DNA from: Candidatus Bathyarchaeota archaeon
GTDB lineage: Archaea; Thermoproteota; Bathyarchaeia; TCS64
Direction: 5' to 3'
Assembly: GCA_963771885.1 (NCBI GenBank)
Contig: CAVYVF010000002.1
Location: 32,001-96,000 of the forward strand
Length of the DNA: 64,000 nucleotides
In this document: positions 39,949 through 41,449 of the stretch, piece after piece
How positions within the stretch are numbered: position 1 is the first letter of the stretch
Layout: each line of letters begins with the position of its first letter
Notes under the pieces: generated by a model
Databases searched by the model: none
Told to the model about the DNA's origin: nothing
The model's input: only the letters and a program-made list of their open reading frames with translations
Translations under genes and position numbers: made by a program

Positions 39949-40452
39949 ATGGGGGACAAAGCTCTCATACCCTGGCGTGAGGTCGCGAACTGGGGCTGCC
40001 GCGCATGCGGAAACTGCTGCGTCGGCTACAGGGTCCCCCTGAAGATGGACGAGTTCGTAAAGATCGGTAACGCCTGCGGCCAGGAGGTCTTCGAATACGG
40101 CATGGGCAAAGTCTACCTGCGCAACGGCATGAACCGCAGATGCGTGCTCCAGCGCCCACTCATGGACAGGTGGATATGCACCGTACAGGGCATGAAACCC
40201 ACAGCATGCCGCCTATTCCCGTTCCGTATACAACACAAGCCCGTATACCCCCGCGGCGACAACAGCGCATACAGCCTCGGCGACAAGGTCTACTACATCT
40301 ACCTCGACCCCGACTGCGAGGGCATCGTCCCAGGGCAACCCACGGAGAGGTTCGCAATGCAGATACTCCCCGAGATAATCAGGAGCGGCTTCGGCGTCGC
40401 AGGGAAGCAGAGGTTCACAACGTCCAAGTACATCAGCTGGACGCCGCCATGA
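39949..40452 (+). CDS. YkgJ/UPF0153 CxxCxxCC metal-chelating protein
   Basis: CRACGNCC, C..Q..KPTACRLFPF. Confidence 0.87.
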   Translation: MGDKALIPWREVANWGCRACGNCCVGYRVPLKMDEFVKIGNACGQEVFEYGMGKVYLRNGMNRRCVLQRPLMDRWICTVQGMKPTACRLFPFRIQHKPVYPRGDNSAYSLGDKVYYIYLDPDCEGIVPGQPTERFAMQILPEIIRSGFGVAGKQRFTTSKYISWTPP

Positions 40453-40669
40453 CGCCGCCGAAAGCTGATGTTAATAGGAATTAAACCTGTTAATCGAGTT
40501 CCACGAAGCCAGTCCTCGTTTTAGCGGCGCCGACAATTATTCGTCGTCCCATCATGATGGGACATTATTAACTGATGGAGGACAATAATCCAGCGGGATC
40601 GCGGGGAATACTCGAAGAAGTTGTCACACCGGGACAACGCAGCCACTAAATCCGTTAAGATCAATGTAT

Positions 40670-40820
40670 GAATTGCCCAGGTGGGAGCGCCTCAAGGGTC
40701 GGAGCAGCGTTCAAGACCCCCGCGAGACGCAGAACCCAGAGGGACGGGCTGCATAAGGCCCCGGGGGCTTAGGCTCTTGGGAATCCTTCGTCCCCTCGGT
40801 GAGAACACCTGGGCAACTCC
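40670..40820 (+). ncRNA. candidate ~150-nt structured non-coding RNA (three-way junction), family unknown
   Basis: Perfect 11-bp closing helix TTGCCCAGGTG/CACCTGGGCAA enclosing two internal stems; G-U pairs favour the + strand; TATA-like element upstream and TTTT downstream. Confidence 0.55.
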
Positions 40821-40846
40821 ATTTTATCTGGAAAAATTAATTCCGG

Positions 40847-41449
40847 TTATCCGCCACGCATGCCGAAGAGGCCGCCCGGGTTCGCCTGAGCCGCTGTGTT
40901 GACCATCCTCAGCGAGAATAATCCTAAGGCAAGTGAGAGGATAATGGGGATGAGCGCTACGAAGGCAGCCTTTTTTGCTGTTAGGCCGTAATTGAGCATT
41001 ACCGCTACCCCAATGAGGACCAGGCTGATTATCGTGAAGACGTTGAAGTAGTCGACCAGCAACTCGATAAGATTCGTCGTCGTCAGCGGCATGCTGCCTA
41101 GAAGCCAGTAGCTAACGAATCGCAGCATCTGCTGGATGAGCGCCGGGATAGAGGCATACGCCGTGAGAGCGAACATCCTGTTTCTGTCACCCTTACCGCC
41201 GAGTATATGCGCCGCTGCGTGGTAGATGAGCGTCGTTATGACCCAGCCCAAATAGACCCCGAGAACCGCGCCGACCGATGTCGCGGCTCCAATGGTACCG
41301 CCCATGCCCGCGAGCTCCGGTATAACCAGCTTCGACGCCACAACATATGCAGTCGCCGCAGCAAAGGCCGCAGTGAGAGTAACTATCCCAGCGCCTTTCA
41401 TGAGGTCCTTATCTGTGACACCGTCGAGCCACCTTGTTACCGGCGCCAA
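40847..41449 (-). CDS. Yip1-domain membrane protein
   Basis: ~5 TM; YHAAAHILGGKG...AYASIP. Confidence 0.75.
   Translation of the reverse strand: MAPVTRWLDGVTDKDLMKGAGIVTLTAAFAAATAYVVASKLVIPELAGMGGTIGAATSVGAVLGVYLGWVITTLIYHAAAHILGGKGDRNRMFALTAYASIPALIQQMLRFVSYWLLGSMPLTTTNLIELLVDYFNVFTIISLVLIGVAVMLNYGLTAKKAAFVALIPIILSLALGLFSLRMVNTAAQANPGGLFGMRGG

Follow-up and report, generated by a model that had tools for sequence, protein, structure and literature searches.

The interval 40673-40816 (+ strand) of the window, i.e., of the whole 64-kb stretch of DNA that was analysed, very probably encodes a member of a real, new, and stand-alone family of structured non-coding RNAs. A stand-alone structured RNA of a possibly new class had been proposed here in the earlier note, and the element proved to be conserved and covarying and to have no Rfam match. 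The RNA of about 145 nt has its ends joined by a helix of 10-11 bp, with two arms leaving a purine-rich three-way junction and a pseudoknot tying these arms together. The family is known so far from five of the twelve genera of one family of Bathyarchaeia and was found only there. Its several paralogues per genome, the pseudoknot joining the arms, and the confinement to one archaeal family had been missed previously.

The body of the RNA comprises the closing helix P1, arm 1, arm 2, and the pseudoknot, and was delimited by the fold, the bounds of the orthologue matches, the score with covariance model R1, covariation, and RNA-library contigs spanning 40679-40824. As described before, the RNA lies between convergent genes, with the gene of a CxxCxxCC protein on one side (39949-40452, +) and that of a Yip1 protein on the other (40847-41449, -).

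Fold, covariation and the pseudoknot

All elements of the fold are given on the + strand. P1 is formed by TTGCCCAGGTG at 40673-40683 and its exact complement CACCTGGGCAA at 40806-40816. Arm 1 (40687-40730) consists of GCG.CTC/GAG.CGC (40687-40693 with 40724-40730) and GGGTC/GACCC (40696-40700 with 40715-40719), with a 14-nt loop as its cap. Arm 2 (40734-40800) is built from ACC/GGT (40734-40736 with 40798-40800), GAGGGACG/CGTCCCCTC (40739-40746 with 40789-40797), and AGG/CCT (40756-40758 with 40785-40787), and carries the apical hairpin CCCGGGGGC-TTAG-GCTCTTGGG at 40760-40781, whose core GGCTT(A/T)GGCT is invariant. The closing helix and both arms were returned by the minimum free energy fold of 40670-40820 (-72.5 kcal/mol), and the three-way junction with a perfect 11-bp closing helix was thus recovered in the sequence as well as in the fold. 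The single-sequence fold is only moderately unusual (z = -2.5 versus shuffles) and the minus strand scores equally; the evidence for more RNA structure than expected by chance therefore comes from the comparison among copies.

Two alignments were used for this comparison. The first, A1, was made with MAFFT from 13 orthologues and one paralogue, with the structure set by hand, and 95.3% of its cells were paired compared to 31-46% when the 3' partners were slid by 1-3 columns. Both sides had changed at 11 pairs, a number reached in 0 of 500 shuffles. Covariance model R1 was built from A1; the window copy scores 178 bits with it, and a search with R1 picked up copies in two further genera. The second alignment, A4, holds 30 short-form copies from three genera aligned to the covariance model, and model R2 was built from it. 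Of its 1392 cells, 91.1% were paired versus 28-43% after sliding. Changes on both sides occurred at 31 of 49 pairs (197 cells) and were matched by none of 500 shuffles, a count that overstates the support since A4 was fitted to the structure of the model and the genomes are relatives. The covariation check that had been called for thus gave strong compensatory change in both alignments, as judged by pair counts against slides and shuffles.

The individual helices contributed to this signal to different degrees in A4. P1 was paired in 99.7% of cells, with both-side changes at 5 of 10 pairs, as in the swap from CCCAGGUG/CACCUGGG to CCCGAAUG/CAUUCGGG, while its outer pairs G-C, C-G, C-G, and C-G were almost invariant across the 30 copies. 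Helices 2 and 3 of arm 1 were paired in 85.5 and 88.0% of cells, respectively, and 8 of their 11 pairs had changed on both sides. Arm-2 helix 5 reached 88.7% with both-side changes at 9 of 11 pairs, helix 6 reached 76.2%, and the apical helix 7 reached 91.5% with changes at 5 of 9 pairs, the three innermost pairs of the apical hairpin being identical in 30 of 30 copies. The junction purines GGA, AGAA, and GAGAA are invariant, and no freely varying unpaired stretch was present among the orthologues. The 84 G-U cells of A4 outnumber its 24 A-C cells, which points to the + strand and agrees with the earlier reading of the G-U pairs.

A pseudoknot of 5 bp, noticed in the paralogues, connects GCAGC in the arm-1 loop (40704-40708) with GCTGC (GCUGC in the RNA) at 40748-40752, in the conserved arm-2 bulge GGGCTGCATAAGG. 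It was absent from the model behind A4 and was counted alone on that alignment, where 95.3% of 150 cells were paired versus 8-65% after sliding. Both-side changes were found in 10 cells compared to 2.8 expected, and 0 of 500 shuffles reached 10. The paralogues carry the pairings GAAGC/GCUUC, GAGGC/GCCUC, GCGGU/GCCGC, ACAGC/GCUGU, and GCAGU/ACUGU, and the pseudoknot is broken at one pair in two copies, by A opposite C in L011 and A opposite A in L022/L043. Each of the two pairing sites is some 11 bp away from the junction, leaving the arms about equally long up to that point, which fits two arms lying side by side and tied within one molecule. On this geometry the pseudoknot is presumably intramolecular, covariation alone being unable to tell intra- from intermolecular pairing.

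Comparison with known RNA classes

Neither an Rfam 15 family (4227 families) at gathering score nor a tRNA or tmRNA gene by ARAGORN was found in the entire 64-kb window. When the Rfam threshold was lowered to E<=10 on 40400-41000, five matches with E>1 appeared, all to eukaryotic miRNA, lncRNA, and snoRNA models and regarded as noise. Rfam searches of 14 and of 7 paralogue loci gave nothing relevant, the sole real match being a neighbouring tRNA in L044, and ARAGORN gave 0 in the 14 loci. The Rfam check suggested earlier thus yielded no known family at the window locus or its paralogues, including tRNA, 5S rRNA, SRP RNA, RNase P RNA, and hammerhead, whose hallmark sequences the earlier note had found to be lacking.

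The 5S rRNA model RF00001 (threshold 38 bits) had no match in the window at gathering score or in 40400-41000 at E<=10, while the same model found a canonical 5S rRNA of 70.7 bits on contig C23 of the source genome. Similarly, the archaeal models of SRP RNA (RF01857) and RNase P RNA (RF00373) did not match at the locus, and canonical copies of these two RNAs were located at C23:4201-4512 (132 bits) and C23:455651-455945 (185 bits), respectively. With canonical 5S rRNA, SRP RNA, and RNase P RNA elsewhere in the genome, the RNA does not replace a missing one. The cloverleaf of tRNA (RF00005) was not matched at the RNA by ARAGORN or Rfam. The models of hammerhead, twister, twister-sister, pistol, hatchet, and HDV-like ribozymes gave no match at the locus (E<=10) or at 7 paralogue loci (E<=1), and riboswitch models gave none at the locus or the paralogue loci. 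The phi29-type pRNA model RF00044 did not match either, and the neighbours of the RNA are cellular genes. No snoRNA-type Rfam model matched the RNA, and no C/D or ACA boxes were seen by eye.

A very divergent form of a known class, such as 5S rRNA, a tRNA-like, SRP Alu-like, or RNase P-like RNA, or a self-cleaving ribozyme that the models missed, is quite improbable. It would account for the Y shape, which is like that of 5S rRNA, for the G-C-rich terminal stem followed by a conserved A as in the acceptor end of tRNA, and for the tertiary pairing of a loop with an arm, which recalls the SRP Alu domain and the hammerhead. Against it stand the lack of any Rfam 15 match at E<=1 at the locus or its paralogues, the negative ARAGORN result, the canonical RNAs found elsewhere in the source genome, and a length and pseudoknot unlike those of 5S rRNA. 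The RNA shares with 5S rRNA the character of a small stable RNA, a closing helix of the 5' and 3' ends, a three-way junction, and two arms. However, 5S rRNA is about 120 nt long, has no pseudoknot, and occurs in a single form, while the RNA measures about 145-147 nt, has a loop-bulge pseudoknot, and occurs in 5 diverged copies in the source genome, some with inserted domains. The SRP Alu domain is a three-way junction in which two hairpins touch via a few base pairs, and the RNA likewise has a three-way junction with a base-paired contact between its two arms. In contrast, this contact is made by a loop and an internal bulge over 5 bp, and the archaeal SRP model did not match.

Three apparent resemblances were considered and rejected. 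The RNase P-like succession GCAGAAC ... GGCUUAGG was not collinear with the conserved regions, and a comparison by eye with the SRP RNA and RNase P RNA of the source genome revealed no common blocks. The GAAA/UGAAA internal loop of the long forms was unfit for a K-turn in its G-A positions and, by eye, was unconserved in the short forms. The CACCUCC tail at the 3' end of some orthologues, which resembles the 3' end of 16S rRNA, was not kept across copies and was discarded as a functional feature. In the accessible parts of the literature, 2026 preprints on prokaryotic non-coding elements included, the family is undescribed, while an unnamed cluster in supplementary material could correspond to it.

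Transcription signals and genomic context

A weak TATA-like box, CACTAAATCC, is situated at 40644-40653 (+) in the window copy, and orthologues carry GGTATATTC or GTAAATAT in the same place. Of 33 copies, 25 had an 8-mer with at least 7 A/T between -40 and -22, most often between -25 and -30, while that of the window copy is weaker (CACTAAAT, 6 of 8 at -29). Just 5' of the TATA-like box, the palindrome GTTGTCACACCGGGACAAC (TTG-N11-CAA) occupies 40620-40638 (+) and recurs in paralogues and other genera, e.g., in L037, L044, and L058. A TTG-N10-14-CAA motif starts at -51 to -53 in 14 of the 33 copies, whereas 500 shuffles gave 2.8 on average and 10 at most, and other copies have palindrome variants with GAAAC or TAAAC ends. 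Its recurrence suggests that TTG-N11-CAA is the site of a dedicated transcription factor or an (extended) BRE common to the promoters of the family.

At the other end, the T-run TTTT at 40822-40825 (+) is a likely archaeal terminator, and one RNA-library contig extends to 40824. A run of at least four T started within a few nt of the 3' end of the model in 22 of 33 copies, 21 of which were among the 23 of the short class. We infer that every copy has a TATA promoter of its own and that transcription stops at the T-run. The promoter and terminator signals named in the earlier note were partly as described: CTAAAT lies at 40646-40651, about 22-27 nt upstream of the closing helix, and TTTT is present, but it stands 6 nt past the helix and not directly after it.

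Two further elements were observed beyond the RNA. The hairpin CTGGAA-N7-TTCCGG at window positions 40828-40846, between the T-run and the Yip1 stop codon, may be the terminator of the convergent Yip1 gene. Conserved sequence was also seen 10-30 nt past the T-run in L044, L050, L057, L058, L061, and L043, in one set as GGAGAAA..TTACAGC and in another as AGGAAACCAAACTCC. AUUUUGG in this region resembles an Sm-site. The conserved sequence could belong to a 3' extension of the RNA, to a site for a termination factor, or to the promoter of a neighbour.

Part of the stretch was present in six RNA libraries, of which four, one each from four studies, were compared as assembled contigs. The contigs covered 40679-40824 in X18, 40683-40813 in X16, 40685-40813 in X17, and 40692-40813 in X15. 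These contigs from four libraries cover the RNA, as the proposed expression check had looked for; they do not establish a discrete transcript, since neither transcription nor its strand, ends, or abundance can be proven from assembled contigs, and such libraries may contain DNA. All four libraries left 40300-40678 and 40840-40920 uncovered, and since uncovered parts prove nothing, they were not counted as evidence for a discrete transcript. In X17, Illumina adapter letters directly adjoin both 40685 and 40813, and in X15 they adjoin 40813; library inserts therefore ended there. The orientation of the adapters would make read 1 antisense to the + strand, which would mean a + strand RNA if a dUTP-type protocol was used. 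Contigs of three libraries from three studies end at 40813, i.e., 3 nt inside P1 and 9 nt before the T-run. The shared stop is at most a weak hint of a 3' end; it could reflect trimming of the mature RNA at this base or an edge effect of the libraries. No joints were found in the contigs of the four libraries, and nothing in them points to a circular form.

The genomic surroundings bear on whether the RNA could be a cis-acting leader, riboswitch, or attenuator of the gene downstream, a reading that is very improbable and that the earlier note had already considered unlikely. Among 33 copies, the ORF that follows runs in the same direction in 18, sometimes at a distance of only 6-150 nt as with Band_7/SPFH and gamma-glutamyltranspeptidase genes, and is convergent in 15, a distribution as expected by chance. 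The co-oriented genes belong to unrelated families, and the Yip1 gene is convergent in the window and in the orthologues. Neighbours of the paralogues vary and include Fe-S proteins, SPFH/Band_7, F420 ligase, gamma-glutamyltranspeptidase, aminotransferase, CsbD, Lrp/AsnC, and integrase. The random downstream orientation and the differing neighbours argue against a leader and for action in trans.

Several riboswitch aptamers likewise combine a three-way junction with a long-range pseudoknot. Aptamers of the purine, TPP, and THF riboswitches have a purine-rich junction closed by P1, arms placed side by side, and loop-loop or loop-bulge pairing, and the RNA has a conserved purine-rich junction closed by P1, two arms, and loop-bulge pairing. 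Unlike these aptamers, it is stand-alone with its own promoter and T-run, which directly follows the short forms, and no Rfam riboswitch model matched it.

Paralogues, distribution and putative role

The source genome comprises 2.46 Mb on 23 contigs and is 92% complete. It holds one exact copy of the RNA, while the covariance model identified five copies: that of the window, two more on its contig, separated by 3 kb, and another two on contig C23. When 60 relatives were searched with a BLAST-type method, orthologues (83-97% identity) turned up for 14 of the 17 genomes in the genus, and the matches stopped where the closing helix ends. These genomes also gave second and third matches, of 70-77% identity, at other places, by which an RNA family was revealed. 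What its members have in common is the 5' end TTGCCCAGGTGGGAGCG, the two arms, and the 3' end CCTGGGCAC; they occur as short forms of about 140-150 nt and long forms of about 175-210 nt. The latter carry one or two extra hairpins ahead of the 3' strand of P1: after arm 2, either a single hairpin is inserted (total length about 175 nt) or a larger domain (about 210 nt). Two long-form paralogues outside the window, L036 and L037, lie 3 kb apart on the same strand at C2 169183-169327 and 172498-172642, with genes of a CsbD-like protein, a Rieske protein, and a hybrid histidine kinase/response regulator around and between them.

Model R2 matched 51 of 71 genomes of the archaeal family, each with 1-6 diverged copies. 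The matches fell into five of its twelve genera (16/17, 28/32, 4/5, 1/1, and 1/1 genomes), while the other seven genera gave none (0/5, 0/4, and five times 0/1). One genome of the source genus, G007 (88% complete), had no copy by R2. Outside the family, R2 matched 0 of the 123 genomes that represent other families in a class-wide sample and 0 of 150 genomes in a phylum-wide one, both searched with stricter Infernal filters by which weak relatives could be missed. A degenerate 18-mer proved too loose for scanning public genome contigs: it matched at least 120 stretches, and among the 80 loci checked, 78 were bacterial sequences that fit by chance, leaving 2 real ones. These two model-confirmed loci sit in Candidatus Bathyarchaeia / Bathyarchaeota MAG records.

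Several copies per genome, together with 11-bp ends that form inverted repeats, could also indicate a mobile or selfish repeat, i.e., a MITE or its remnant, with a terminal inverted repeat mimicking the closing helix. One copy in another genus (L045) moreover has a phage-integrase-family gene (L045:2016-3140) 375 nt upstream of it; small RNA genes are common integration targets. Such an origin is extremely improbable, as the source genome has a single exact copy and second-locus matches are only 70-77% identical, while the order of CxxCxxCC gene, RNA, and Yip1 gene is kept across species within the genus. The compensatory changes in the internal helices and the pseudoknot are unlike the outcome of selection on DNA ends. 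In addition, a putative promoter is found at a fixed distance from each copy, and 12 pattern matches on viral contigs included 0 model matches. The copies, diverged and syntenic, were thus unlike the MITE that the earlier note had named as an alternative. The chance that the element is instead a small protein-coding ORF (40681-40902, +, 73 aa) is close to nil: this frame is open, but it has no Pfam match and crosses the T-run into the convergent Yip1 gene, the substitutions in the helices are compensatory, and orthologous elements measure 146, 147, or 148 nt, so that 1-nt indels break any reading frame.

The RNA may act in trans, as a stable scaffold whose surfaces of invariant sequence would be recognised by a protein or an RNA. 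Three features look like recognition surfaces on a rigid body rather than guide or antisense segments, namely the outer pairs of P1, the junction purines, and the apical hairpin, all of them invariant; in sequence terms, these would be UGCCC/GGGCA at the end of the closing helix, the purines of the junction, and the hairpin GGCUU(A/U)GGCU. The paralogues, longer forms included, would then be isoforms of this scaffold. By analogy, a trans-acting scaffold comparable to Y RNA, 6S RNA, or SRP RNA is tentatively put forward. Y RNAs and the bacterial YrlA are paralogous small RNAs with a sequence-conserved terminal stem and a variable interior that serve as protein-binding scaffolds. The RNA resembles them as a small RNA in several paralogues with a conserved terminal stem formed from both ends. 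In contrast to them, its interior is rigidly structured and conserved, no Y_RNA match was obtained, and a Ro/TROVE protein gene was not found in the 92%-complete source genome.

It is rather unlikely that the RNA forms the core of an undescribed archaeal particle, i.e., an RNA-only assembly with intermolecular loop-bulge pairing, or is a new trans-acting catalytic or ligand-sensing RNA. The pRNA of phi29 builds a ring by intermolecular loop-bulge pairing. It is similar to the RNA in size, in its 5'/3' closing helix and three-way junction, and in a covarying complementarity of hairpin loop and bulge. The RNA differs in having no RF00044 match and no phage context, and in arm lengths that fit intramolecular pairing. 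If the pairing were intermolecular, the paralogue "codes" GCAGC/GCUGC, GAAGC/GCUUC, GAGGC/GCCUC, and GCGGU/GCCGC would keep assemblies apart.

Bathyarchaeia are widespread and largely uncultured archaea of sediments and soils. To our knowledge, few large structured non-coding RNAs beyond the universal ones are known in archaea, and none from Bathyarchaeia. An architecture of seven covarying helices including a pseudoknot, with invariant unpaired purines and paralogues with added domains, usually means a defined biochemical job. The family is a concrete target in the search for a new ribonucleoprotein, sensor, or catalyst, and the covariance model would enable the annotation of its RNA genes across the genomes of the archaeal family.

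A partner gene common to all copies was not found in their surroundings. The neighbouring CxxCxxCC protein was considered as a partner and rejected; it occurs in every one of the 12 genera, also in the seven where the RNA was not found, and is therefore not a co-distributed partner. Downstream of the CxxCxxCC gene in 14 other genomes, no RNA was detected (all E>0.8, filters off). One CxxCxxCC homologue (G031:C21:13081-13566) contains a single in-frame TGA, which might be explained by an error in sequencing, by decay into a pseudogene, or by recoding.
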